Under the pieces are notes generated by a model. It was not told where the DNA came from, made no database searches, and saw only the letters and a program-made list of their open reading frames with translations. From NCBI RefSeq assembly GCF_963921235.1, contig NC_086097.1, positions 130,016,001 to 130,080,000 on the forward strand: DNA of 64,000 bases. The letters are read 5' to 3'. Position 1 is the first letter of the stretch. Each line of letters opens with the position of its first letter. This stretch comes from Mobula hypostoma. Its lineage: Eukaryota. The position numbers were made by a program, and so were the translations under genes. This document shows positions 28,253-64,000 of the stretch, in pieces.

Positions 28253-29257
28253 AAGGAGAGAAAGGGGCAAAGTAATCTCCTGGGTTGGGTCTCTAACTAT
28301 TTATAGGCTCTCAATTTATTTTCCAGTAATTCATCAATCTCCTGGTGCAGCGCAAGCATAAATCACACAAATGAATGTCCTCCAAGCACAGAGGCGGGGG
28401 TGGCTTTCCACTGGCTGCTAGATTCTGACAACCTGATCGTTAGAGAAGAACACACTCTCTGTCGTAGCTGGAAAATGGCTCTTCGAAACCTGAGGTAAGA
28501 ACCTTCTGCTGGAGTCAGAGCTGATGGCCTTCTGGGATGGGCATAGAAACCAAGACAAGGCAAAAGAGAACAAGACGACTAAAACAGGTAGCAAATGTCA
28601 AGATGCAACTCTTTAAAGTTTTGATCAGGCCACATTTGGAGTACTAAATGCAGTCTGGTTGCCCCATTACAGGAAGGATGTGGAGGCTTTGGAGAGGGTG
28701 CAGTAGAGATTCATCACAATGTAGCCTGAATGGAGAGAGTACCGATAAGGAAAGGTTAATTTTTCCTGGAGTGTTGCAGGCTGATGGAACATACCTGATA
28801 GTAATATATAAAATTATAAGATACATACACGCAGTGGCCACTTTATTAGGTACAGGTGTACACCTGCTTATTGATGCAAATATCTGGTCAGCACGAACTC
28901 AGTGGGCTGAAGGGCCAGTTCCTGTGCTGGACTGTTCTATGTCCTATAGGTTCTATGAGTATGCAGGAGGGAGGGAGGAAGGATGCAAGTGAATGAAAAT
29001 ATAAACAAGGAAAACATATGAGAGAGTAAACAACAGAGGGTGAAAGAAGGAAACACACTGAGAGAATGGACAAAGAATGTAAGAAAACACTGCAAAAGAT
29101 CACATAGAACACTTCACCACACACTTTTTGCTGTTCATATATAGTTGCAAACTTCATACATAGAAACATAGAAACATAGAAAATAGGTGCAGGAGTAGGC
29201 CATTCGGCCCTTCGAGCCTGCACCGCTATTTATTATGATCATGGCTGATCATCCAAC

Positions 29258-32200
29258 TCAGAACCCCGCCCCAGCCTTCCCTCCATACCCCCTGACCCCT
29301 GTAGCCACAAGGGCCATATCTAACTCCCTCTTAAACATAGCCAATGAACTGGCCTCAACAGTTTGCTGTTGCAGAGAATTCCACAGATTCACCACTCTCT
29401 GTGTGAAGAAGTTTTTCCTAATCTCGGTCCTAAAAGGCTTCCCCTCTATCCTCAAACTGTGACCCCTCGTTCTGGACTTCCCCAACATCGGGAACAATCT
29501 TCCTGCATCTAGCCTGTCCAATCCCTTTAGGATCTTATACGTTTCAATCAGATTCCCCCTCAATCGTCTAAATTCCAACGAGTACAAGCCCAGTTCATCC
29601 AGTCTTTCTTCATATGAAAGTCCTGCCATCCCAGGAATCAATCTGGTGAACCTTCTTTGTACTCCTTCTATGGCAAAGATGTCTTTCCTCAGATTAGGGG
29701 ACCAAAACTGCACACAATACTCCAGGTGTGGTCTCACCAAGGCCTTGTACAACTGCAGTAGTACCTCCCTGCTCCTGTACTCGAATCCTCTCACTATAAA
29801 TGCCAGCATACCATTCGCCTTTTTCACCGCCTGCTGTACCTGCATGCCCACTTTCAATGACTGGTGTATAATGACACCCAGGTCTCGTTGCACCTCCCCT
29901 TTTCCTAATCGGCCACCATTCAGATAATAATCTGTTTTCCTATTTTTGCCACCAAAGTGGATAACTTCATATTTATCCACATTAAATTGCATCTGCCATG
30001 AGTTTGCCCACTCACCCAACCTATCCAAGTCACCCTGCATCCTCTTAGCATCCTCCTCACTGCTAACACTGCCACCCAGCTTCGTGTCATCCGCAAACTT
30101 GGAGATGCTGCATTTAATTCCCTCATCCAAGTCATTAATATATATTGTAAACAACTGGGGTCCCAGCACTGAGCCTTGCGGTACCCCACTAGTCACCGCC
30201 TGCCATTCTGAAAAGGTCCCGTTTATTCCCACTCTTTGCTTCCTGTCTGCCAACCAATTCTCCACCCACACCAATACCTTACCCCCAATACTGTGTGCTT
30301 TAAGTTTCCACACTAATCTCCTGTGTGGGACCTTGTCAAAAGCCTTTTGAAAATCCAAATATACCACATCCACTGGTTCTCCCCTATCCACTCTACTGGT
30401 TACATCCTCAAAAAATTCTATGAGATTCGTCAGACATGATTTTCCTTTCACAAATCCATGCTGACTTTGTCCGATCATTTCTCCGCTTTCCAAATGTGCT
30501 GTTATCACATCCTTGATAACTGACTCCAGCAGTTTCCCCACCACCGACGTTAGGCTAACCGGTGTATAATTCCCCGGTTTCTCTCTCCCTCCTTTTTTAA
30601 AAATTGGGGTTACATTAGCCACCCTCCAATCCTCAGGAACTAGTCCAGAATCTAACGAGTTTTGAAAAATTATCACTAATGCATCCACTATTTCTTGGGC
30701 TACTTCCTTAAGCACTCTAGGATGCAGACCATCTGGCCCTGGGGATTTATCTGCCTTCAATCCCTTCAATTTACCTAACACCACTTCCCTACTAACATGT
30801 ATTTCACTCAGTTCCTCCATCTCACTGGACCCTCTGTCCCCTCCTATTTCTGGAAGATTATTTATGTCCTCCTTAGTGAAGACAGAACCAAAGTAATTAT
30901 TCAATTGATCTGCCATGTCCTTGCTCCCCATAATCAATTCACCTGTTTCTGTCTGCAGGGGACCTACATTTGTCTTTACCAGTCTTTTCCTTTTTACATA
31001 TCTATAAAAGCTTTTACAGTCCGTTTTTATGTTCTCTGCCAGTTTTCTCTCATAATCTTTTTTCCCCTTCCTAATTAAGCCCTTTGTCCTCCTCTGCTGA
31101 ACTCTGAATTTCTCCCAGTCCTCAGGTGAGCCACTTTCTCTGGCTAATTTGTATGCTACTTCTTTGGAATTGATACTATCCCTAATTTCTCTTGTCAGCC
31201 ACGGGTGCACTACCTTACTTGATTTATTCTTTTGCCAAACTGGGATGAACAATTGTAGTTCATCCATGCAACCTTTAAATGCTTGCCATTGCATATCCAC
31301 CGTCAATTCTTTAAGTGTCATTTGCCAGTCTATTTTAGCTAATTCACGTCTCATACCTTCAAAGTTACCCCTCTTTAAGTTCAGAACCTTTGTTTCTGAA
31401 TTAACTATGTCACTCTCCATATTAATGAAGAATTCCACCATATTATGGTCACTCTTACCCAAGGGGCCTCTCACGACAAGATCGCTAATTAACCCTTCCT
31501 CATTGCTCAAAACCCAGTCCAGAATAGCCTGCTCTCTAGTTGGTTCCTCGACAAGTTGGTTCAAAAAACCATCCCGCATACATTCCAAGAAATCCTCTTC
31601 CTCAGCACCTTTACCAATTTGGTTCACCCAGTCTACATGTAGATTGAAGTCACCCATTATAACTGCTGTTCCTTTATTGCACACATTTCTAATTTCCTGT
31701 TTAATACCATCTCCGACCTCACTACTACTGTTAGGTGGCCTGTACACAACTCCCACCAGCGTCTTCTGCCCCTTAGTGTTACGCAGCTCTACCCATATCG
31801 ATTCCACATCTTCCCGGCTTATGTCCTTCCTTTCTATTGCGTTAATCTCTTCTTTAACCAGCAACGCCACCCCACCTCCCCTTCCTTCATGTCTATCCCT
31901 CCTGAATATTGAATATCCCCGAACGTTGAGCTCCCATCCCTGGTCACCCTGGAGCCATGTCTCTGTGATCCCAACTATATCATAATCATTAATAACAATC
32001 TGCACTTTCAATTCATCTACCTTATTACGAATGCTCCTTGCATTGACACATAAAGCCTTCAGGCGCTCTTTTACAACTCTCTTAGCCCTTATACAATTAT
32101 GTTGAAAAGTGGCCCTTTTTAATGCTTGCCCTGGATTTGTCGGCCTGCCACTTTTACTTTTCTCCTTTGTACTTTTTGCTTCTACGCTCACTTTACACCC

Positions 32201-32287
32201 CTCTGTCTCTCTGCACTGGTTCCCATCCCTCTGTTGTGAACTAACCTCCTCACGCCTAGCCTCTTTAATTTGATTCCCACCCCCCAA
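29258..32287 (-). CDS. CR1 ORF2: AP endonuclease + reverse transcriptase (1009 codons, no stop)
   Basis: APE motifs CVNARS, GITETW, MGDFN, KSDH; RT motifs [26 protein letters not shown]. The listed start is TTG, not ATG. Confidence 0.95.
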   Translation of the reverse strand: MGGGNQIKEARREEVSSQQRDGNQCRETEGCKVSVEAKSTKEKSKSGRPTNPGQALKRATFQHNCIRAKRVVKERLKALCVNARSIRNKVDELKVQIVINDYDIVGITETWLQGDQGWELNVRGYSIFRRDRHEGRGGGVALLVKEEINAIERKDISREDVESIWVELRNTKGQKTLVGVVYRPPNSSSEVGDGIKQEIRNVCNKGTAVIMGDFNLHVDWVNQIGKGAEEEDFLECMRDGFLNQLVEEPTREQAILDWVLSNEEGLISDLVVRGPLGKSDHNMVEFFINMESDIVNSETKVLNLKRGNFEGMRRELAKIDWQMTLKELTVDMQWQAFKGCMDELQLFIPVWQKNKSSKVVHPWLTREIRDSINSKEVAYKLARESGSPEDWEKFRVQQRRTKGLIRKGKKDYERKLAENIKTDCKSFYRYVKRKRLVKTNVGPLQTETGELIMGSKDMADQLNNYFGSVFTKEDINNLPEIGGDRGSSEMEELSEIHVSREVVLGKLKGLKADKSPGPDGLHPRVLKEVAQEIVDALVIIFQNSLDSGLVPEDWRVANVTPIFKKGGREKPGNYTPVSLTSVVGKLLESVIKDVITAHLESGEMIGQSQHGFVKGKSCLTNLIEFFEDVTSRVDRGEPVDVVYLDFQKAFDKVPHRRLVWKLKAHSIGGKVLVWVENWLADRKQRVGINGTFSEWQAVTSGVPQGSVLGPQLFTIYINDLDEGIKCSISKFADDTKLGGSVSSEEDAKRMQGDLDRLGEWANSWQMQFNVDKYEVIHFGGKNRKTDYYLNGGRLGKGEVQRDLGVIIHQSLKVGMQVQQAVKKANGMLAFIVRGFEYRSREVLLQLYKALVRPHLEYCVQFWSPNLRKDIFAIEGVQRRFTRLIPGMAGLSYEERLDELGLYSLEFRRLRGNLIETYKILKGLDRLDAGRLFPMLGKSRTRGHSLRIEGKPFRTEIRKNFFTQRVVNLWNSLQQQTVEASSLAMFKRELDMALVATGVRGYGGKAGAGF

Positions 32288-32292
32288 CCATT

Positions 32293-32707
32293 CTAGTTTA
32301 AAGTCACCTCAGTAGCCCTCGCTAATCTCCCTGCCAGGATATTGGTCCCCCTCGGATTCAAGTGTAACCCGTCCTTTTTGTACAGGTCACGCCTGCGCCA
32401 AAAGAGGTCCCAATGATCCAAAAACTTGAATCCCTGCCCCCTGCTCCAATCCCTCAGCCACGCATTTATCCTCCACCTCATCGCATTCCTACTCTCACTG
32501 TCGCGTGGCACAGGCAGTAATCCCGAGATTACTACCTTTGCGGTCCTTTTTCTCAACTCCCTTCCTAGCTCCCTATATTCTCCTTTCAGGACCTCATCCC
32601 TTTTCCTACCTATGTCATTGGTACCTATATGTACCACGACCTCTGGCTCCTCACCCTCCCACTTCAGGATATCTTGGACACGATCAGAAATATCCCGGAC
32701 CCTGGCA
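32293..32707 (-). CDS. CR1 ORF1 C-terminal SGNH/GDSL esterase-like domain (partial)
   Basis: VHIGTND and DGLHLN blocks; ends ...EVTLN-stop. Confidence 0.9.
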
Positions 32708-47114: not shown

Positions 47115-50100
47115 CTTCAGAGATGGGTACGAAACAACACATACTACATGCTTAAACACAGATCACACTAACAAATAACAGCACAGAATGTTTATCAGCA
47201 TTAAATAACAATATTATCCATAAATGCACACTTGTTCATATGCCTGCAACCAAAGTGTGAATGAAATCAGGCTCTTCGCTCCCCTTGACAGCAGTGAGTT
47301 TCACTGTCACAGTTCAGCACTCACACTTCAGCTACTTCTAACTTCCTGGCTGGAAATGCTGTGTATCTCCTGTACAATAATCAGTGAACACAGTTAACAT
47401 TCTCACATCTCTGAATACAGCAGCAAACAGCAGTTAGTCAAACACTGAGTAAATGCAATTATGGAAAACATTTCTTTCACAATGTCCATGCACCGTATGC
47501 CAAGACTAACACAAGACCTTGACGACACATTCATTCAGATTTGGTGAGCTTAGATAATTTTACAATGTACTTGAAAACCCAGTAGTGAAATCTACTTGTG
47601 AATTTATCCATTTTTATTTTCTGATTAGCTGCACGATTGTACAAAGGTTTCATCATCAACTCTCCAATCTAATGTGCAAACAGGAAAACAAATTTTTGCA
47701 ATGACAACAATCATTGTAACTTAAAGGCTCAGAATAATTGAAAGACCATACACAAACACGACAATGTGTTCAAGTTCTACATCATACATTAAAGGCCGCT
47801 GCTTCCACAGATCTGGATTAAAGGCGCTTGTTTTATGATGAATAATTTCTCTGCTTCTGGGAGCAGTTTATTATTACTACTCTCAAGCTATTAGATACTC
47901 ACACTGTAAGATTACACAAGGTGGTTATTTAAATGTTTGGTTTGTTCCACCTGTAATCCAAACATATCTGGTGCTCTCTACACTCTCTCCTATATTCCTT
48001 TTCACTTTAGTTGAATCTCAACCACTCTTATGAGTGTATATCTCAATCCAGTCTGTATGGATTGAACTTCTAACCCTTCCTTAGTTTAGTAAAGGGCATA
48101 TTTCCAGAAATCCAGGCTTCACTGTTAGCATGACTCAGTGGCTGGACTTGTCACCTCTCAACCAGTGGGCTTAATCCCACCCAGACACACAACCCAAGCT
48201 GATCATCCATTGATCTTTTGGATAAAAACATGAAACCAAGATTCAATTACTCACACAATTGCACATAAAATATTATTCAAAGTGGAAAGGAAGCATCATT
48301 CCATGTGTCCAAAGCAACATTTATTCCTTAGCCAGCATTATGAAAACATAACTTCTATCATTGTTATTTGTGGAAGCTTGAATACAAACTGAGAGCTCTT
48401 TTTTGGTACCTGGCTTCATAAAGTGAGAGCGATGTGGCCAGCCAAATTAAAGATGATTGGGTAGTCTCTTTATCAATGAAGTTTAGTAACGACATTTGAC
48501 GTAAGTGACTCTGACTGTGCTTGTGCATAAAACAGGATTAGAAGTATGCTCTATTCAGAATAGGATATATGACTAGCTTATTAAACTAGCGTAACGTTGA
48601 GACAGATTTCAGCCTGATGTGAGTGACTGTGAGCAAGTTTGACATAAAACTGGATTAGAAGTATGAGCCATTCAGACTAGAACACAGTGCAAAGTTTAAA
48701 AGAACTCAGGTGCTTTCGGCTTTTATTCAGTGAGTGGCAATCAACATGGAGCCAATAAAAATAAAGGATGTGTAAGCGGAGCGGCCACTGTTAGATTAGG
48801 ACGGTGTAAGAGTGGTCCAAATTTGGTTCAACAGGCTGGTCAAGCACACGTGGAGGTTCTAAGTAAGCAAGGAAGTTTCTAGTAAGTTTTCGTTTCTGTT
48901 ACTACATAGCTAGTGTACAGAGAATGGGTCCGGAGTTAGAGGTAAGTTCCCTGTGTGAGGTGTGGGAAATTTGGGAGACCTCCAGTCTCTCTGATAACTA
49001 CAACTTCACGAAGTGCATCCAGCTGCAGCTCCTGAGAGACCGTGTTAACGAACTGGAGCTGCAGCTGGATTGCCTTTGGCTTAGACGGGAAAATAAGGTA
49101 ATAGATAGCAGCTGTAGGGCGGTAGTTACCACTAAGTTGCAGAAGGCAAGTACTTGGATGACCGTCAGGAGAGGGAAAGGAAACAGACTGCCAGTGCAGA
49201 GTATTCCTGCACCTGTTACCCCCAGTACTAAGTACACTGCTTTGGATACTGTTAGGAAGACGACCTACCAGGGGAAGCCACAGTGACCAGATCTCTGGCA
49301 CGGAGTGTGGCTCTGTGGCTTGGGAGGCGGGTGGGTGGGGAAAGAAGAGCTCATAGTGATAGTGGATTCTATAATTAGAGGAGAAGAACGCAGATTCTGT
49401 GGACGTGAAAGAGACACCCAGATGGTATGTTGTCTCCCAGGTGCCAAGGTCAGGGATGTCTCGAATTGGAACCACAGCACTCTACAGAAAGAGGGTGAAC
49501 AGCTGGATGTCGTGGTGCATTGTGGTATCCACAACATAGTTAGAAAAAGGAAGGAGATCGACAAGAGAGAATACAGGGAGCTAGACAGAAAGCTGAAAAG
49601 CAGGACCTCCAGGGTAGTAATCTCTGAATTGATGACTGTGCCATACACCAGTGAGGGTAATAACAGGATGATTTGGCAGATGAATGAGTACCTGAGGAAC
49701 TGGTGAAGGGGGCAGGGTTTCAGATTTCTGGATTATTGGAATCTCCTCTGGGGACTGTATGACCTGTTTAAAAAAAAAAGGACGGGTTACACCTGAACTC
49801 AAGAGGGATCAATATCCCTCTTTGCTGGCAGGTTTTCAAGAGCTGTTGGGAAGGTTTAAATTAATTTGGCAGGGGGATGAGAACCGAAGTGATAGGGCTG
49901 AAGATGGGGCCATTGGTATACAGGTAGATGCAATGTGTAGTGAGACTGTGAGGAAGGACAGGCAGATAATAGGGCAAAATTACAGTCAGTGGGATGAGTT
50001 AAAGTATAACAGGGGACCAAAATCAAGAAGGGTGATGAATACAGGAATGAAGATGGTATACTTGAGTAAGCACAGTATAGAAAATAAGGTAGATTATCTT

Positions 50101-52109
50101 GTGACACAGATACAGATTGACAGGTATGACATTGACATCTCTGAGTGTGGCTGTAAGATCACAGTTGGGAGCTTAACTTCCAAGCATACACATTATATCA
50201 AAAGGATATACAAGTATGCAGAGGGGAGTGACGGCTCTGTTAGTTAAAAAAATGAAATCAAATCATTAGAAAGAGGTGACATAAGATCAGAACACGCAGA
50301 ATCCTTGTGGGTAGAGTTAAGAAACTGTAAGGACCCTAATGGAAATTATAGGCAGGCCTCCGAATAGTAGCCAGGATATGGGCTACAAATTATGACAGGA
50401 GGTAGAAAAGGCATGTAAAGGGCAATGTTGCGATAATCATGAGGAATTTCCACATGCAGGTAGATTGGGAAAATCAGATTGGTGCCTGATCCCAAGGGAG
50501 GGAATTTGTAGGATGTTTACAAGGTGCCTTTTTAGAGCAGCTTCCGATTGAGCCCACTAGAGGAATGGCAATTCTGGATTGGCTGTTATGTAATGACCCA
50601 GATTTGATAGGAGCTTAAGGTAAAGAAACCCTTGGGGAGCAGTGATCATAATATGACAGAATTTACCCTGCAATTTGAGAAGCAGAATTAAAATCATATA
50701 TATCAATATTACAGTGGAATAAAGGAAATTACAGAGGCATGACAGAGGAGCTTGACAAAGTTGATTGGAAGAGGACGTTAGAAAGAATAATGGCAGAACA
50801 GCAAAACTGACATTTCTGGGGAAAATTCACAAGGCACTGGAAAGATACATTCCAAAGATGAAGATGTTTGTTAAATGGAGGAGGTGACAACCGTGGCTGA
50901 CAAGGAAAGTCAAAGACAGCATAAAATCAGAAAAGGGCATATAATAAAGCAAAAATTAGTGTGAAGGTCGAAGATTGGGAAGCTTTTAAAAACCAACAGA
51001 AGGCAACTAAAAAGCCATAGAGAGAAAAGATGAAATATGAAGGGAAGCTAACCAATAATATGAAAGAGGATACAAAAGGTTTTTTTCTGATATATAAAGA
51101 GGAAAGGAGAGATGAGAGTGGATGTCAGACCACTGCAAAATGAAGCCGGAGAAACTGCAATGAGGGACAAAGAAATGGCGAACAAACTTGATAAGTATTC
51201 TGTGCCAGTCTTCACTGTGGAGGACACCAGCGGAATGCCAGAAATGCAAGTGTTTGGGGGTTGAAGTGAGTGTCATTACTATTACTAAGAAGAAGGTGTT
51301 TGGTAAGCTGAAAAGCCTGAAGGTATGTAGATAAGTTACCTTTACCAGATGGACTACACCCAAGAGTTTGTAAAGAGGGAGCTGAAGAAATTGTGAAGGC
51401 ATTAGTAATGATCTTTCAAGAACTGCTAGATTCTGGAATGGTTCCTGAGGAAAGGAAAATTGAAAATATGACTCCACTCTTTAAAAAGGGAGGAAGGCAG
51501 AAGAGAGAAAATTATAGGCCAGTTAGCCTGACTTCTGTGTTTGGGAAGATGTTGGAGTCCATTATTAAGGATGAAGTTTTGGGGGTACTTGGCATTACAA
51601 TGTAAAATAGGCCAAAATCAGTGTGGCTTTCTAAAGGAGAAATCTAGCCCGACAAATCTGTTAGAATTCTTTGAGGAAATAACAAACAGGATAGACAAAG
51701 GAGAGTCAGTGGATGTTGCTTACTTGGATTTTCAGAAGGCCTTTGACAAGATACCACAAAAGGTTGCTTAATAAGAGCCCGTGGTATTATAGGAAAGGTA
51801 CAAGCATGGATGGAAGATTGGCTGACTGGCAAGAGACAAAGAGTGGGAATAAAGGGAGCCTTTTCTAGTTAGCTGCTAGTGAATATTGGTGTGCTGCAGG
51901 AGTCAGTGTTGGGACTGCTTCTTTTCACATTGTATGTCAATGATTTGGGTTAAGGAATTGGTGGCTTTGATGTCAAGTTTAATGATGATACTAAGATAGG
52001 CAGAGGGGCAGGTAGTGTTGAGGAAGAAGGGCGTGGCTGCAGAAGGACTTGGACAGGTTGAGGAATGGGGAAAGAAATGGCAGATGGAATATAGTGTCAA
52101 GAAGTGTAT

Positions 52110-55100
52110 GGGCAGCGCCCGTGGCCTCTCCGGTGATGAATATCTGTTATTCAGCTGGTGGGAGTTGTGTACAGGCCACCTAACAGTAGTAGTGAGGTCG
52201 GAGATGGTATTAAACAGGAAATTAGAAATGTGTGCAATAAAGGAACAGCAGTTATAATGGGTGACTTCAATCTACATGTAGACTGGGTGAACCAAATTGG
52301 TAAAGGTGCTGAGGAAGAGGATTTCTTGGAATGTATGCGGGATGGTTTTTTGAACCAACATGTTGAGGAACCAACTAGAGAGCAGGCTATTCTGGACTGG
52401 GTTTTGAGCAATGAGGAAGGGTTAATTAGCGATCTTGTCGTGAGAGGCCCCTTGGGTAAGAGTGACCATAATATGGTGGAATTCTTCATTAATATGGAGA
52501 GTGACATAGTTAATTCAGAAACAAAGGTTCTGAACTTAAAGAGGGGTAACTTTGAAGGTATGAGACGTGAATTAGCTAAGATAGACTGGCAAATGACACT
52601 TAAAGGATTGACGATGGATATGCAATGGCAAGCATTTATAGGTTGCATGGATGAACTACAACAATTGTTCATCCCAGTTTGGCAAAAGAATAAATCAAGG
52701 AAGGTAGTGCACCCGTGGCTGACAAGAGAAATTAGGGATAGTATCAATTCCAAAGAAGTAGCATACAAATTAGCCAGAGAAAGTGGCTCACCTGAGGACT
52801 GGGAGAAATTCAGAGTTCAGCAGAGGAGGACAAAGGGCTTAATTAGGAAGGGGAAAAAAGATTATGAGAGAAAACTGGCAGAGAACATAAAAACGGACTG
52901 TAAAAGCTTTTATAGATATGTAAAAAGGAAAAGACTGGTAAAGACAAATGTAGGTCCCCTGCAGACAGAAACAGGTGAATTGATTATGGGGAGCAAGGAC
53001 ATGGCAGACCAATTGAATAATTACTTTGGTTCTGTTTTCACTAAGGAGGACATAAATAATCTTCCAGAAATAGTAAGGGACAGAGGGTCCAGTGAGATGG
53101 AGGAACTGAGTGAAATACATGTTAGTAGGGAAGTGGTGTTAGGTAAATTGAAGGGATTGAAGGCAGATAAATCCCCAGGGCCAGATGGTCTGCATCCTAG
53201 AGTGCTTAAGGAAGTAGCCCAAGAAATAGTGGATGCATTAGTGATAATTTTTTCAAAACTCGTTAGATTCTGGACTAGTTCCTGAGGATTGGAGGGTGGC
53301 TAATGTAACCCCACTTTTGAAAAAGGAGGGAGAGAGAAACCGGGGAATTATAGACTGGTTAGCCTAACGTCGGTGGTGGGGAAACTGCTGGAGTCAGTTA
53401 TCAAGGATGTGATAACAGCACATTTGGAAAGCGGTGAAATGATCGGACAAAGTCAGCATGGATTTGTGAAAGGAAAATCATGTCTGACGAATCTCATAGA
53501 ATTTTTTGAGGATGTAACTAGTAGAGTGGATAGGGGAGAACCAGTGGATGTGGTATATTTGGATTTTCAAAAGGCTTTTGACAAGGTCCCACACAGGAGA
53601 TTAGTGTGCAAACTTAAAGCACACGGCATTGGGGGTAAGGTATTGGTGTGGGTGGAGAATTGGTTAGCAGACAGGAAGCAAAGAGTGGGAATAAACGGGA
53701 CCTTTTCAGAATGGCAGGCGGTGACTAGTGGGGTACCGCAAGGCTCAGTGCTGGGACCCCAGTTGTTTACAATATATATTAATGACTTGGATGAGGGAAT
53801 TAAATGCAGCATCTCCAAGTTTGCGGATGACACGAAGCTGGGTGGCAGTGTTAGCAGTGAGGAGGATGCTAAGAGGATGCAGGGTGACTTGGATAGGTTG
53901 GGTGAGTGGGCAAACTCATGGCAGATGCAATTTAATGTGGATAAATGTGAAGTTATCCACTTTGGTGGCAAAAATAGGAAAACAGATTATTATCTGAATG
54001 GTGGCCGATTAGGAAAAGGGGAGGTGCAACGAGACCTGGGTGTCATTATACACCAGTCATTGAAAGTGGGCATGCAGGTACAGCAGGTGGTGAAAAATGC
54101 GAATGGTATGCTGGCATTTATAGCGAGAGGATTCGAGTACAGGAGCAGGGAGGTACTACTGCAGTTGTACAAGGCCTTGGTGAGACCACACCTGGAGTAT
54201 TGTGTGCAGTTTTGGTCCCCTAATCTGAGGAAAGACATCTTTGCCATAGAGGGAGTACAAAGAAGGTTCACCAGATTGATTCCTGGCATGGCAGGACTTT
54301 CATATGAAGAAAGACTGGATGAACTGGGCTTGTACTCGTTGGAATTTAGAAGATTGAGGGGGGATCTGATTGAAACGTATAAGATCCTAAAGGGATTGGA
54401 CAGGCTAGATGCAGGAAGATTGTTCCCGATGTTGGGGAAGTCCAGAACGAGGGGTCACAGTTTGAGGATAGAGGGGAAGCCTTTTAGGACCGAGATTAGG
54501 AAAAACTTCTTCACACAGAGAGTGGTGAATCTGTGGAATTCTGTGCCACAGCAAACTGTTGAGGCCAGTTCATTGGCTATGTTTAAGAGGGAGTTAGATA
54601 TGGCCCTTGTGGCTACAGGGGTCAGGGGGTATGGAGGGAAGGCTGGGGCGGGGTTCTGAGTTGGATGATCAGCCATGATCATAATAAATGGCGGTGCAGG
54701 CTCGAAGGGCTGAATGGCCTACTCCTGCACCTATTTTCTATGTTTCTATGTTTCTATCTATCAAGTAGGGAACCGTGCACAATTCTGATTTGATGGAGAC
54801 GGACATGAGAATACGGAGGAACATCTGGAAAACTTCTGAAATGTCCGCTTCGCTGCCGCTGCTGCTGTGTGGTAACCGGAATCTCCGGAGCAGAAGGCCC
54901 CGAAATCCTCAGCTTTGCTTGTTTCAGCGGCCAGGGCGAGGTCAAAGGCGCTCAGCAGAGGATGGCACTCGGGAGGCTGTATCGGAAGGGCTGGTCGGAG
55001 GCTCGAAGTTTTTGGACGGATGGACTCAGTGTCGGCTGGGGTCGGCTGCTTCCAAGGCATCGGCAAGTTGACGGTGCCTGGAGGTTTATGGCAGGGAGTT

Positions 55101-57660: not shown

Positions 57661-58550
57661 TGTGCTTAAATCAATTTGATTTGACCCATCGACAGAGTAT
57701 TCAAGCACACTCACCTCCTCCGGACATGGAGGGTGAGCTAAAATGACCTTCCATACCTGAGAGTCCTCCCTGGAATGGAATGAACCACAAACAGCCACTG
57801 GAACTTTTTTTCTGTTATTTACCCTTGTGTCTTTCTTATTGCACATTTAGAGCAGTGTAAGTGCCAGGCAGGATAGTAGAATGCTCCTACTGCAGGATAT
57901 GGGAAAGCAGGGAGATATACAGTATTCCTGACAACTACACCTGCAAGAAGGGCATCCAGCTGCAGCTTCTAGCAGTCTATATTAAGGACTTGGAGCTGGA
58001 ACTAGATGAACTGTGGATCATTCGGGAGGCTGAGGCGTTGACAGGCAGGACATACAGGAAGGTAGTTACACCCAAGGTGCAGGAATCAGGTAACTGTGTG
58101 ACCATTAGGAGGAGGAAAGAGGGCAGCCAGTGCAGAGTACCCCTGTGGCCTTTCCCTTCAACACAGGTATACCACTTTGGATACTGTTGGAGCAGGGGGG
58201 AGATGACCTAGCAGAGAAAAGTCACAGCAGTCAAGTCTCTGGCACCGAAGGGAATGGGGGTAAAGGGTGGAGGAGAGGCAAGCAGTAGTGAAAGGGGGTT
58301 TGTTAGTTAGGGGAACAGAAAGGAGGTTCAGTGAACGAGAATGAGATTCCTGGATGGTTTGTTGTCCCCTGGTGCCAGGGTCAGGGACATCTCAGTTCGA
58401 GTCCACAGCATTCTTAAGTGGAAGTGGCAGCCAGAGTTTACTTTGGTATCAAAGACACGGGTAGGATGGTTGACAAGGTCCGGCAAAGTGAGTTCAGGGA
58501 GTTATGTGTGAAGTTAAAGGGCGGGACTTCCAGGGCTGCGATCTCAGGAT

Positions 58551-61500
58551 GGGTCAGGTCACAGACCTCTCAGTGCGTGAGCATCTGGGGGACAGTGACC
58601 ATCACTCCCTGGCCTTCAGCATTATCATGGAAAAGAATAGAATCAGAGAGAACAGGAAAATTTTTAATTCGGGAAGGCCAAATTATGAGGCTCTGAGGCT
58701 AGAACTTGCGGGTGTGAATTGGGATGATGTTTTTGCAGGGAAATGTACGATGGACATGTGGTCAATGTTTAGGGATCTCTTGCAGGATGTTAGGGATAAG
58801 TTTGTCCTGGTGAGGAAGATAAAGTAGAGTGAAGGGACCATGGGTGACAAGTGTGGTGGAAAATCTAGTCAGGTGGAAGAAGGCAGCATACATGAGGTTT
58901 AGGAAGCAAGGATCAGATGGATCTATTGAGGAATATAGGGTAGCAAGAAAGCAGCTTAAGAAGGGGCTGAGAAGAGCAAGAAGGGGGCATGAGAAGGCCT
59001 TGGCAAGTAGGGTAAAGGAAAACCCCAAGATATTCTTCAATTATGTGAAGAACAGAAGGATGACAGGAGTGAAGGTAGGACCAATTAGAGATAAAGGTGG
59101 GAAAATGTGCCTGGAGGCTGTGGATGTGAGCGAGGTCCTCAATGAATACTTCTCCTTGGTATTTACCAATGAGAGGGAACTTGATGACGGTGAGGACAGT
59201 ATGAGTGAAGTTGATGTCTGAAGCATGTTGATATTAAGGGAGAGGAGGTGTTGGAGTTATTAAAATACATTAGGTCGGATAAGTCCCCGGGGCCTGACAG
59301 AATATTCCCCAGGCTGCTCCACGAGGCGAGGGAAGAGATTGCTGAGCCTCTGGCTAGGATCTTTATGTCTTCGTTGTCTGCGAGAATGGTACTGGAGGAT
59401 TGGAGGCAGGCAAATGTTGTCCCCTTGTTCAAAAAAGGTAGTAGGGATAGTCCGGGTAATTATAGACCAGTGAGCCTTATGTCTGTGGTGGGAAAGCTGT
59501 TGGAAAATATTCTGAGAGATAGGATCTGTGGGCATTTAGAGAATCATGGTCTGATCAGGGATAGTCAGCATGGCTTTGTGAAGGGCAGATCGTGTCTAAC
59601 AAGCCTGATAGAGTTGTTTGAGGAGGTGACCAGGCATATAGATGAGGTAGTGCAGTGGATGTGATCTACAAACCCCATTTCCAGAAAAGTTGGGATATTT
59701 TCCAAAATGCAATAAAAACAAAAATCTGTGATATGTTAATTCACGTGAGCCTTTATTTAACTGACGAAAGTACAAAGAACAGATTTTCAATAGTTTTCCT
59801 GACCAACTTAATTGTATTTTGTAAACATACACAAATTTAGAATTTGATGGCTGCAACACACTCAACAAAAGTTGGGACAGAGTTAAAATAAGATTGAAAA
59901 GTGCACAGAATATTCAAGTAACACTGGTTTGGAAGACTCCACATTAAGCGGCTAATTAGTAGCAGGTGAGGTATCATGACTGGGTATATAAGTAGCGTCC
60001 ATCACAGGCTCAGTCTTTGCAAGCAAGGATGGGTCGTGGCTCACCCCTTTGTGCCAAAATTCGTGAGAGAATTGTTAGTCAGTTATAAAGGAACATTTCT
60101 CAACGCAAGATTGCAGAGAATTTAGGTCTTTCAACATCTACAGTACATAATATCGTGAAAATATTCAGAAAATTCAGAGACATCTCAGTGCATAAAGGCA
60201 AGGTCGGAAACCACTGTTGAATGTGCGTGATCTTCAAGCCCTCAGGCAGCACTGCCTAAGAAACTGTCATGCTACTGTGACAATTATAGCCACCTGGGCT
60301 CCGGAGTACTTCGGAAAACCATTGTCACTCAACACAGTCCGTCGCTGCATCCAGAAATGCAACTTGAAACTATATTACGCAAGGAGGAAGCCATACATCA
60401 ACTCTATGCAGAAACGCCGGCAAGTTCTTTGAGCCCGAGCTCATCTCAGATGGACCGAAGGACTGCGGAACCGTGTGCTGTGGTCAGATGAGTCCACATT
60501 TCAGCTAATTTTCGGAAAAAACGAGCGTCGAGTTCTCCATGCCAAAGATGAAAACGATCATCCAGATTGTTATCAGCGAAAGACGCAAAAGCCAGCACCT
60601 GTGATGGTATGGGGGTGCATCAGTGCCCACGGCATGGGTGAGTTGCATGTATGTGAAGGTACCATTGACTCTGAGGCGTATATTAGGATTTTAGAGAGAC
60701 ATATGTTGCCATCAAGGCTACGTCTCTTCCCGGGACGTCCATGCTTATTTCAGCAGGACAATGCCAGACCACATTCTGCACGGGCTACAACAGCGTGGCT
60801 TTGTAGACACAGAGTGCATGTGCTTGTCTGGCCTGCTGCCAGTCCAGATCTATCTCCTATTGAAAATGTATAGCGCATCATGAATAGGAGAATCAGACAA
60901 CGGAGACCACAGACTGTTGAGCAGCTGAAGTCTTACATCAAGCAAGAATGGACAAAATTTCCAATTGCAAATCTACTATAATTAGTATCCACAGTTCCAA
61001 AACGATTAAAAAGTGTTATTAAAAGGAAAGGTGATGTAACACAATGGCAAACTTGCCTCTGTCCCAACTTTTGTTGAGTTTGTTGCAGTCATCAAATTCT
61101 AAACTTGTCTGTGCTTACAAAATACAATTAAGATGGTCAGTAAAACTATTGAAAGTCTTTTCTTTGTACTTTTGTCAGTTAAATAAAGGTTCACTTGAAT
61201 TAACATACCACAGATTTTTGTTTTTATTGCATTTTGGAAAATATCCCAACTTTTCTGGAAATGGGGTTTGTATATGGATTTTAGTAAGGCATTTGACAAG
61301 ATTCCACACAGTAGGCTTATTCAGAAAGTCAGAAGGCATAGGATCCAGGGAAGTTTGGCCAAGTGGATTCAGAATTGGCTTGCCTGCAGAAGGCAGAGGG
61401 TCATGGTGGAGGGAGTACATTCGGATTGGAGGGTTGTGACTAGTGGTGTCCCACAAGGATCTGTTCTGGGACCTCTACTTTTTGTGATTTTTATTAACGA

Positions 61501-62447
61501 CCTGGATGTGGGGGTAGAAGGGTAGGTTGGCAAGTTTGCAGATGACACAAAGGTTGGTGGTGTTGTAGATAGTGTAGAGGATTGTCGAAGATTGCAGAGA
61601 GACATTTATAGGTTGCAGAGGTGGGCTGAGAAGTGGCAGATGGAGTTCAACCTGGAGAAGTGTGAGGTGGTACACTTTGGAAGGACAAACTCCAAGGCAG
61701 AGTACAAAGTAAATGGTAGGATACTTGGTAGTGTGGAGGAGCAGAGGGATCTGGGGGTACATGGCCACAGATCCCAGAAAGTTGCCTCACAGGTAGATAG
61801 GGTAGTTAAGAAAGCCTGTGGGGTGTTAGCTTTCATAAGTCAAGGGATAGAGTTTAAGAGTCATGAGATAATGATGCAGCTCTATAAAAATCTGGTTAGG
61901 CCACACCTGGAGTACTGTGTCCAGTTCTGGTCGCCTCACTATAGGAAGGATGTGGAAGCATTGGAAAGGGTACAGAGGAGATTTACCAGCTGCCTGGTTT
62001 AGAGACTATGCATTATGATCAGAGATTAAGGGAGCTAGGGCTTTACTCTCTGGAGAGAAGGAGGATGAGAGGAGACATGATAGAGGTATACAAGATATTA
62101 AGAGGAATAAATGGAGTGGACAGCCAGTGCCTCTTCCCCAGGGCACCACTGCTCAATATAAGAGGACATGGCTTTAAGGTAAGGGGTGGGAAGTTCAAGG
62201 AGGATAGTGGTGGGAAGTTCAAGGAGGATATTAGAGGAAGGTTCTTTACTCAGAGAGTGGTTGGTGTGTGGAATGCACTGCCTGAGTCAGTGGTGGAGGC
62301 AGATACACTAGTGAAATTTAAGAGACTACTAGACAGGTATATGGAGGAATTTAAGGTGGGGAGTTATTTGGGAGGCAGGGTTTGAGGGTTGGTACAACAA
62401 TGTGGCCCGAAGGGCCTGTACTATGCTGTACTATTCTATGTTCTATG
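58551..62447 (+). mobile_element. CR1 LINE ORF2, 5'-truncated, different subfamily, split by Tc1
   Basis: [47 protein letters not shown]; (TTCTATG)n tail; 24-bp in-frame duplication at about 62186-62233. Confidence 0.92.
59669..61270 (+). mobile_element. Tc1 transposon, full length, TIRs of about 210 bp, inactivated transposase
   Basis: TA TSD at 59667-68 and 61271-72; ends caaaccccatttccagaaaagttgggata and its reverse complement; WSDE, FQQDNARPH, WPAASPDLSPIENV followed by a premature stop. Confidence 0.95.
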
Positions 62448-64000
62448 CTCAATGCTACCCCTGCCACTTGCTAATGAGGCCAGAAATAGGAAGATCATAT
62501 AAGTTAACATGTGGCTAAGGAGATGGTACAGGAGCGAGGCTTCAGATTTTTGGATCATTGGACTCTCTTCCAGGGACTTTCATTGGACTCTCTTCCTGTA
62601 CAGATGGTACAGTATGCACCTGAGCTGAAGGGGGACTAATATCCTAGCGGGAAGGTGGGGCGGGGTGGTAAACTCAAGTTGCAGAGAGATGGGAACCATA
62701 GCATCAGAACAGACAGTGGGGAGGTTGTGGATAAAGATGCTGTTAGGCTTCAAGCGAAGTCGGGAATCGAAAGGTTGTGCATGGTGGGACTAATGATCTG
62801 AGCTGCATATATTTCAGCACAAGGGACATTGTAGGAAAGAAGGATTACCTTAGGGCATGGAGCAGCACATCGAATTATGACAATGTAGCCATTTGTGAGA
62901 TTTGGTTGCAGGAGGGGCAAGACTGCCAGTTCAATGTTCCAGTGTTCTGTAGTTTTAGACACGACAGAGCAGGAGGGATGAAAGGGGAAGGGTGGCATTA
63001 CTAGTCAGGGAAAATGTCACAGCAGTACTTAGTCAGGACAGACTGGAGAGTTCATCTATTGAGGATTTATGAGTGGAACTCAGAAATAAGAAAAGGTATG
63101 ACCACGTTAATGGGATTATATTATAGACCACCCAACTATTTGTGGCATCAGAGGAGCAAATTTTTAAAGAGATCATAATCTATTGCAAGAAACACAAAGT
63201 TCTGATAATAGGTGATTTTACCCATAAATTGCAGGAGTTAAAGAACTGAGAGATCCAGAGAGGTGATGGAGGACGTGAAGAAAAAAACAGGAAATAACAG
63301 AGCTAAGAAATTTGATGCACCCATCTGGAGATGGGAAAGGCATGGGTGTCCATTCCAGCAGCAGTCATGATGTAAGCCGAGGTTGCGATGGAAGTAGAAT
63401 CTCAGCTCAGGCTCGAAGTTTGTCAAAGCAAGGAGTTTATTGCACCATGGTGTATATGACAATAAACTAATCTGAATCTGAACCTATAGGGAGCCTGCCC
63501 TGTTAAGGAAGGAAGTACAAGTCATCCTGAAAGCATGGAATTTGTTGAGGCCACATGACATTGGAGAACACTGTTCAAATTCACTGCAATCTGACTGTAC
63601 ATATATACAATCAAATGAAACAACGTTCCTCTGGACCACAGTGCACTCACAAAACATGTATCACACACAGCACATAAAATATTACTACAAATAAGTTAAT
63701 AAAATTCAAAATGCAAGATGCGGGCAGCACAGGTAAACGGTAAACAGCAGCTTTTGTCTTTCTTTGGTTAAGCAGCCTTGATGAACCTCAGCAGCCACCT
63801 CCAGCACCATTTAAGAATTAGGTGGTTGATGGAATGTCTAACATTTAAAAATGATGAATGAGAATATCTTATACGTGTGGGAGTATTGCTGAGTTCTTTG
63901 CAAATATATTTTCAAAATCACAACTTTGATAGCATGATTCATTATAATCACGAGCTGTGTAATTTAAGCCGTTGAAGCTATTCTATTATACAAAAGTAAA

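Follow-up and report, generated by a model that had tools for sequence, protein, structure and literature searches.

A conserved slippery heptamer, stop codon and GGGGG motif at the ORF1/ORF2 junction of esterase-type CR1 retrotransposons, best read as a -1 frameshift site

To our knowledge, the second open reading frame of animal LINEs is reached either by reinitiation or by 2A-type skipping. The RNAs of human L1 and silkworm SART1 are bicistronic, with translation of ORF2 dependent on that of ORF1 (PMC2881922), and a review calls ORF2 translation in LINEs an open question (PMC3894237). CR1 resembles these elements in having a two-ORF LINE RNA. However, L1, which needs no AUG, and SART1, which uses an overlapping UAAUG (PMC3894237), rely on reinitiation and make a separate ORF2 protein, whereas CR1 has overlapping frames and a slippery site. 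Frameshifting in LINEs has a precedent, since the passage on Dictyostelium TRE5-A and TRE3-A in PMC5911963 states that a -1 frameshift is required for translation of ORF2. Like CR1, these are APE-type non-LTR retrotransposons, but they belong to another host, have an APE-RT-zinc finger organisation and an oligo(A) tail, and that passage gives neither a slippery sequence nor a stimulator.

Among viruses, the coronavirus ORF1a/1b junction shares with CR1 the UUUAAAC heptamer, a new frame starting from its C, and a nearby zero-frame stop, which in coronaviruses raises the efficiency of frameshifting (PMC8499926). The first-pass annotation had pointed to U UUA AAC as the coronavirus -1 heptamer, as the same source indeed states. 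However, coronaviruses use a 3' pseudoknot, whereas for CR1 no 3' structure is predicted to be conserved, and its stop lies immediately next to the heptamer. The PRRSV nsp2 -2/-1 frameshift, stimulated by nsp1beta/PCBP, is efficient only with a spacer of 9-11 nt; as in CR1, there is no obvious 3' structure, and a short single-stranded motif follows a 10-nt spacer (PMC4937337). The PRRSV motif is C-rich, is bound by protein and follows a different slippery sequence, and the likeness of the CR1 GGGGG motif (G5) to it would be one of analogy only.

Canonical vertebrate CR1 elements end in short tandem repeats of 8 bp and have no poly(A). The canonical vertebrate CR1 (zinc finger/leucine zipper plus esterase, ORF1 type IVB, CR1 subgroup 7; PMC4120745, PMC13343379) has the same esterase ORF1, APE-RT ORF2 and octamer-repeat 3' end as the element considered here, a copy of which lies in the 64-kb window, that is, the whole stretch of DNA analysed (Table 1). 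Indeed, this element is a canonical esterase-ORF1 CR1 on three features: an ORF2 with APE endonuclease and reverse transcriptase, an ORF1 comprising an SGNH esterase and an N-terminal zinc finger/leucine zipper region, and a 3' end of 8-bp tandem repeats without poly(A). The 3' UTR of the window copy ends in three TTTCTATG octamer repeats (29182-29159) and lacks poly(A). The nearest named homologs of its ORF1 come from rays and sharks.

In the covered parts of two surveys, one of ORF1 and one, from 2026, of CR1 (PMC4120745, PMC13343379), the words 'frameshift' and 'overlap' do not occur; 'frameshift' is likewise absent from the covered parts of reviews on how LINEs are translated, and 'CR1' has no match in the initial 300,000 characters of the review by Atkins (PMC5009743). 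No description of frameshifting in CR1 was found in this material; the chicken and turtle CR1 papers of 1997-2001, Repbase/Dfam and supplements, which lie outside the search, may mention an overlap or a frameshift.

Table 1. Features of the CR1 junction and its surroundings in the window
Feature	Position	Strand	Details
Slippery heptamer TTTAAAC	32302-32296	-	Phased T TTA AAC, X XXY YYZ, in the ORF1 frame
ORF1 stop codon TAG	32295-32293	-	Directly 3' of the heptamer
Conserved GGGGG (G5)	32285-32281	-	Begins 10 nt past the heptamer; candidate 3' stimulator
Second G-box, displaced; GAGGG in the window copy	32227..32231	-	Where recombination joined the ORF2 donor lineage
3' part of CR1 ORF1, SGNH/GDSL esterase domain	32293..32707	-	PF13472, E 9e-16
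ORF2 frame, -1 relative to ORF1	29258..32308	-	1016 codons from stop to stop
ORF2 content: linker of about 84 codons, APE endonuclease, reverse transcriptase	29258..32308	-	PF03372, PF14529, PF00078
Short 3' UTR	29159..29257	-	Read from sequence
Junction of an older, diverged CR1 copy	49855..49876	+	TTTAAAT TAA, 7 nt, GGGGG

The 3' end of ORF1 in the window copy, read on the minus strand, is GAG GTG ACT TTA AAC TAG. The heptamer in the ORF1 end ACT TTA AAC TAG had been noted at first pass, together with the claim that a -1 shift on it leads exactly into ORF2, and both are borne out by the sequence: the -1 frame reads TTT AAA CTA GAA TGG TTG across the heptamer and is the long open frame in which Pfam finds the endonuclease and the reverse transcriptase. 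An X XXY YYZ heptamer in the zero-frame phase thus lies within the overlap of two ORFs, with the downstream ORF in the -1 frame. The nearest upstream stop in the -1 frame is two codons 5' of the heptamer. The first methionine of ORF2 does fall well inside the endonuclease, as claimed earlier, at codon 218 of the -1 frame (216 counted from the heptamer) and not at about 210; it stands immediately 5' of GDFN and 3' of the NARS, ITETW and YRPP motifs, which, from work on the L1 endonuclease, we take to be catalytic.

The window copy is truncated at its 5' end inside ORF1, at about 32707, where its identity to the full-length copy L026 ends. The full-length ORF1 of L026 encodes 311 aa, a Cys-rich N-terminus and the esterase; its N-terminal part contains two CxxC pairs and a Leu-rich stretch, a region missing from the window copy. 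Because of this truncation the window copy cannot express a fusion and records the design of its family only.

Canonical heptamers are frequent by chance. The window contains 260 X XXY YYZ heptamers on the plus strand and 269 on the minus strand (529 in total), and TTTAAAC alone occurs 15 times on the two strands together, so little weight attaches to a single copy. When at most two mismatches are allowed, the extended pattern TTTAAACTAR-N7-GGGGG has two matches in the window, at 32302 and 49855, both of them CR1 ORF1/ORF2 junctions; in shuffled controls the mean is 0.36 matches, and six of 100 shuffles reach two. The strong evidence lies in conservation across lineages and not in the single window copy.

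The second match belongs to an older, diverged copy with an ORF1 of about 50% identity. Several further CR1 copies are present in the window, all on the plus strand. A second young copy of the window family (52154-54766, 98.5% identical), truncated at its 5' end inside the endonuclease, sits in or beside the older copy at 49443-52104. A third junction (62440-63136) is heavily decayed, with GGTAAAC at the heptamer position and an eroded G-run. In an old copy at 58374-59643 a fragment of the ORF1 esterase is joined straight to the middle of ORF2, which suggests that an internal deletion removed the junction.

A search of the genome with the ORF1 C-terminus yielded 150 scored matches from 74,476 candidates, mostly 97-100% identical. 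Junctions were located with a profile that omits the last 13 residues of ORF1, and the best heptamer match nearby was taken. Exact TTTAAAC was found at 57 of the 60 loci of the first young set, at 13 of 19 relatives of the older copy in the window (one more locus lacked an anchor), and at 37 of 50 further loci, old decayed families included. Searches of the same genome with PF13472 and P0158 retrieved mainly the same young families again. Elsewhere, 82 of 169 ORF1 homologs have a tail of 22-30 residues after DGxH, and 69 of these 82 end in LN; the named sources of proteins with such a tail include rays, sharks, coelacanth, frogs, turtles, squamates and a hummingbird. The L2-type esterase ORF1s are set apart from LN ends by ending in TI or in longer tails.

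A metagenome scan, with the pattern placed about 140 residues upstream of the ORF1 terminus, gave 40 loci of 24-52% identity. Sixteen of these have no anchor and five more stop short of the junction; among the remaining 19, the heptamer is exactly TTTAAAC in 15, differs by one base in two and by three bases in two. The scan alignment was built from proteins ending in LN, which biases it towards CR1 and towards no codon. No relative was found in viral contigs with A1, P0047 and P0162, in genome contigs with P0138 and P0158, or in plasmids with P0001. A motif scan of viral contigs returned 62 loci, none with similarity to CR1, and these were taken as chance matches.

Clustering on upstream DNA produced 17 lineages with medoid identity of 0.39-0.75. 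Of these, 16 were counted, L116 being omitted as L2-like and without the LN end; the 16 share ancestry, 11 come from few metagenome samples and seven are single copies. As the lineages are related, no product probability is given. The commonest heptamer is TTTAAAC in 15 lineages and GTTAAAC in one (L088), the latter a slippery form known from arteriviruses. A stop codon follows the heptamer directly in 15 of 16 lineages, its commonest form being TAG in 11 and TAA in four. The terminal leucine is encoded by TTA and the asparagine by AAC in all 16. The codon before them specifies eight different residues, yet its third base is T in 15 of 16 lineages.

Control codons in the same domain behave differently. 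The invariant residues L290 and G294 use six and four codons, respectively, across the 16 lineages. In a codon alignment of ORF1 from 13 lineages, the other invariant columns (G, L, N and L) use 4, 4, 2 and 6 codons, and the terminal Leu and Asn one codon each (13/13). In ORF2 of the window copy, TTA accounts for 13 of 93 Leu codons and AAC for 14 of 47 Asn codons. Since control codons vary freely, synonymous sites in this sample have changed repeatedly and the heptamer has stayed fixed. The refuting condition named at first pass, a site that varies freely between CR1 families at synonymous positions, did not arise, and the conservation goes beyond protein coding, as expected of a -1 frameshift signal. 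Among the matches listed for four contig sets spanning the junction, whose RNA status is a guess, no sense-strand splice-end joint was seen and no variant fell in the heptamer or the stop, with variation at neighbouring wobble positions; these matches are not counted as evidence.

The codon counts bear on the possibility that there is no signal: the terminal Leu-Asn pair would be kept for the structure of the esterase, and the heptamer would result incidentally from codon choice and common descent. In alignment A1 (whose proteins were chosen for LN ends) N311 does not vary and L310 hardly does, and slippery-like heptamers abound by chance. However, equally invariant residues of the same domain use two to six synonymous codons and those of the terminal pair one each; T is kept as the wobble base of a residue that is itself free to vary; and G5 lies outside ORF1 and is fixed across different amino acids of the -1 frame. 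We regard this explanation as extremely improbable, and the codon controls already go most of the way to refuting it.

Downstream of the stop, seven variable bases are followed by GGGGG, with G at the five positions in 15, 16, 15, 16 and 15 of the 16 lineages. In 15 of 16 lineages the spacer between heptamer and motif is 10 nt; in L088 the run begins three bases earlier. A G-rich stretch had been described at first pass as starting 5 nt after the heptamer; it exists in the window copy, but only GGGGG with the 10-nt spacer is conserved. No conserved stable fold was detected in the 50 and 90 nt after the heptamer in 17 representatives, under a model that covers neither pseudoknots nor protein-bound states; the z-scores scatter around zero, mainly from -1.6 to +1.3, with single values of -2.5 and +2.3. 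A scan for long-range duplexes of the G5 arm found partners at unrelated places, none of them common to the lineages. The canonical 3' stem-loop or pseudoknot at 5-9 nt downstream was not found with this model, and since no conserved local fold was predicted the signal is not classed as structure-stimulated. A G-quadruplex was rejected as a general stimulator: L083, L085 and L087 have a single G-run of at least three near the site. G5 is a conserved unstructured motif at a spacing of about 10 nt, of the type found in PRRSV.

The reading frame is conserved as well. For 13 of the 14 lineages that could be scored, the endonuclease most often starts in the heptamer's -1 frame, after linkers of about 100-270 nt. 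In the exception, L087, tblastn puts it in frame 3; the -1 frame there stays open across the first endonuclease motif and breaks just after it. In the three largest lineages the -1 frame closes 1-2 codons 5' of the heptamer. With the frame closed just upstream, ORF2 cannot be entered before the heptamer, and an upstream start cannot account for any dual coding of the overlap. In the window family the short open -1 stretch 5' of the heptamer contains neither ATG nor a near-cognate codon, and a methionine precedes the first endonuclease motif in two of the 42 copies with the -1 frame open that far, so the lack of an AUG is a family trait. In Zorro3, the endonuclease change N17A reduces retrotransposition to under 5% (PMC1965478).

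The earlier claim that ordinary AUG initiation could not make full-length ORF2 protein therefore stands for the window family, which has no usable AUG, and for some others, but not for several lineages with an AUG in the linker. Such codons are found as Met 4-5 in clusters 6, 13 and 14, as Met 23-39 in clusters 4, 8 and 15, and as Met 8/16 in two decayed copies of cluster 5.

Termination-reinitiation of the L1/SART1 kind has to be weighed here. Ribosomes would restart in the -1 frame near the ORF1 stop and make a separate ORF2 protein, using a linker AUG where there is one and AUG-independent initiation elsewhere, and the heptamer with G5 would be a reinitiation signal. Lack of an AUG does not by itself argue against this, since L1 ORF2 translation is AUG-independent (PMC11485995). 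SART1 sets an example with its UAAUG; an in-frame ATG follows a few codons past the stop in L081, L086, L092 and cluster 6, the stop is conserved beside the site, and no RNA structure lies downstream. However, reinitiation leaves unexplained the phased X XXY YYZ whose -1 re-pairing yields exactly the ORF2 frame. Neither a start nor a near-cognate codon is conserved at the junction, and the ATG at 32291, one base past the ORF1 stop in the window copy, is not in the ORF2 frame and is missing from most of the other lineages. Reinitiation is therefore an unlikely explanation, although it may act alone or alongside frameshifting.

The junction might also be a DNA or RNA-processing motif that provides a separate or corrected ORF2 message: an internal promoter (a TATA-like box and a G-box), a splice acceptor at CTAG, or a site of polymerase slippage. 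TTTAAA followed by a G-run resembles promoter elements, CTAG is a YAG, and conservation at the nucleotide level is what such elements would show. On the other hand, the AG of a splice acceptor is missing in the four of 16 lineages ending in TAA; a transcript started downstream would meet no AUG before codon 216 in the window family; the junction contains no long homopolymer on which a polymerase could slip; and the phase to ORF1 and the fixed -1 register are not explained. We consider a processing motif of any of these types very unlikely.

The window family is a mosaic. Its ORF1 and junction are mostly 79-96% identical to the L072/L075/L138/L140 lineages, and, beyond a point about 70 nt 3' of the heptamer, its ORF2 matches the L157-L159 lineage with 90-97% identity. 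The recombination join (window 32240-32220, minus strand) is at the G-box of the donor, which is displaced by 54 nt, or 18 codons, beyond the first box, so that the -1 register is kept. A crossover at this position exchanged ORF1 and the junction cassette as one block. The recombinant family has neither Met4 nor Met20 of the donor. In 59 copies of the family, the in-place box is GGGGG in 55; the displaced box is GGGGG in 38 and the shared variant GAGGG in 17. This suggests, without proving it, that the importance of G5 is confined to its spacing from the heptamer. The family is young and abundant, with a median identity of 97.7% between the window copy and 30 others. On these identities, the youngest CR1 family arose by recombination between two older lineages.

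Among 89 ORF2 homologs there was no full-length CR1 protein in which esterase, EN and RT are naturally fused. The annotated single-copy proteins P0019, P0024 and P0028 run from ORF1 into the FKL of the -1 frame, which reflects indels in those copies rather than expression.

Some ORF1 homologs lie outside the common pattern. The lineages L083, L085, L087, L102 and L088 have ORF1 tails 5-6 residues longer than the shark, tetrapod and bird proteins and retain the heptamer, the stop and G5. With these longer-tailed lineages included, the range of the signal may extend beyond vertebrates. The distant homologs P0162, P0157 and P0166 end in SQGN or EFFR; judged from the protein ends alone, these could be encoded by other slippery heptamers. 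P0101 and P0042 are recorded for a bacterium and a flatworm, but are CR1 ORF1 proteins of the vertebrate type and probably represent host DNA in those assemblies.

Taken together, the comparative data show the junction to carry a real signal of deep conservation, whose best interpretation is a -1 frameshift site accompanied by an unusual G5 element. The inference of programmed frameshifting made at first pass is supported by this comparison, and we consider it highly probable that esterase-type CR1 elements produce an ORF1-EN-RT fusion in this way. Slippage, its efficiency, the role of the stop and of G5, and the fusion itself are what we infer from the junction. The majority of ribosomes would terminate at UAG and release the 311-aa ORF1 protein. 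A minority would move back one base at U UUA AAC; tRNA-Leu and tRNA-Asn would pair anew with UUU AAA, and reading would resume at CUA into the linker. The pause probably comes from the adjacent stop and the G5 10 nt downstream, in place of a pseudoknot, and G5 may be bound by a protein. The predicted product joins ORF1, linker, EN and RT in about 1,320 residues (311 plus 1012 codons); the esterase-EN-RT fusion proposed earlier is thus retained as a prediction, except that it would carry the whole 311-aa ORF1 and could not come from the truncated window copy. The ratio of ORF1 protein to polymerase would be high, as in gag to gag-pol frameshifting. The signal would act in full-length master elements, of which the window copy would be a 5'-truncated product.

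A more far-reaching proposal, made by analogy and put forward tentatively as a possibility, is that esterase-type CR1, the dominant retrotransposon of most vertebrates, has for hundreds of millions of years made its polymerase as a fused, Gag-Pol-like ORF1-ORF2 protein by means of a structure-free cassette (U UUA AAC, stop, 7 nt, GGGGG). In this cassette G5 would be a putative binding site for a trans-acting protein, either a host G-run binder or the ORF1 protein itself, the latter providing feedback control. It would then be a G-rich counterpart, in a cellular genome, of the protein-stimulated frameshift of PRRSV.

If frameshifting is indeed used, a retrovirus-like mechanism would be added to the routes to ORF2 in the most widespread vertebrate LINE, its signal having a length of about 25 nt. 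A G5 motif at a fixed spacing and without a fold points to an undescribed kind of frameshift stimulator, and the features of the junction are what assays of CR1 retrotransposition should keep intact. The CR1 polymerase would be redefined as an esterase-carrying fusion, and ORF2 annotations that begin at the first AUG would be truncated.
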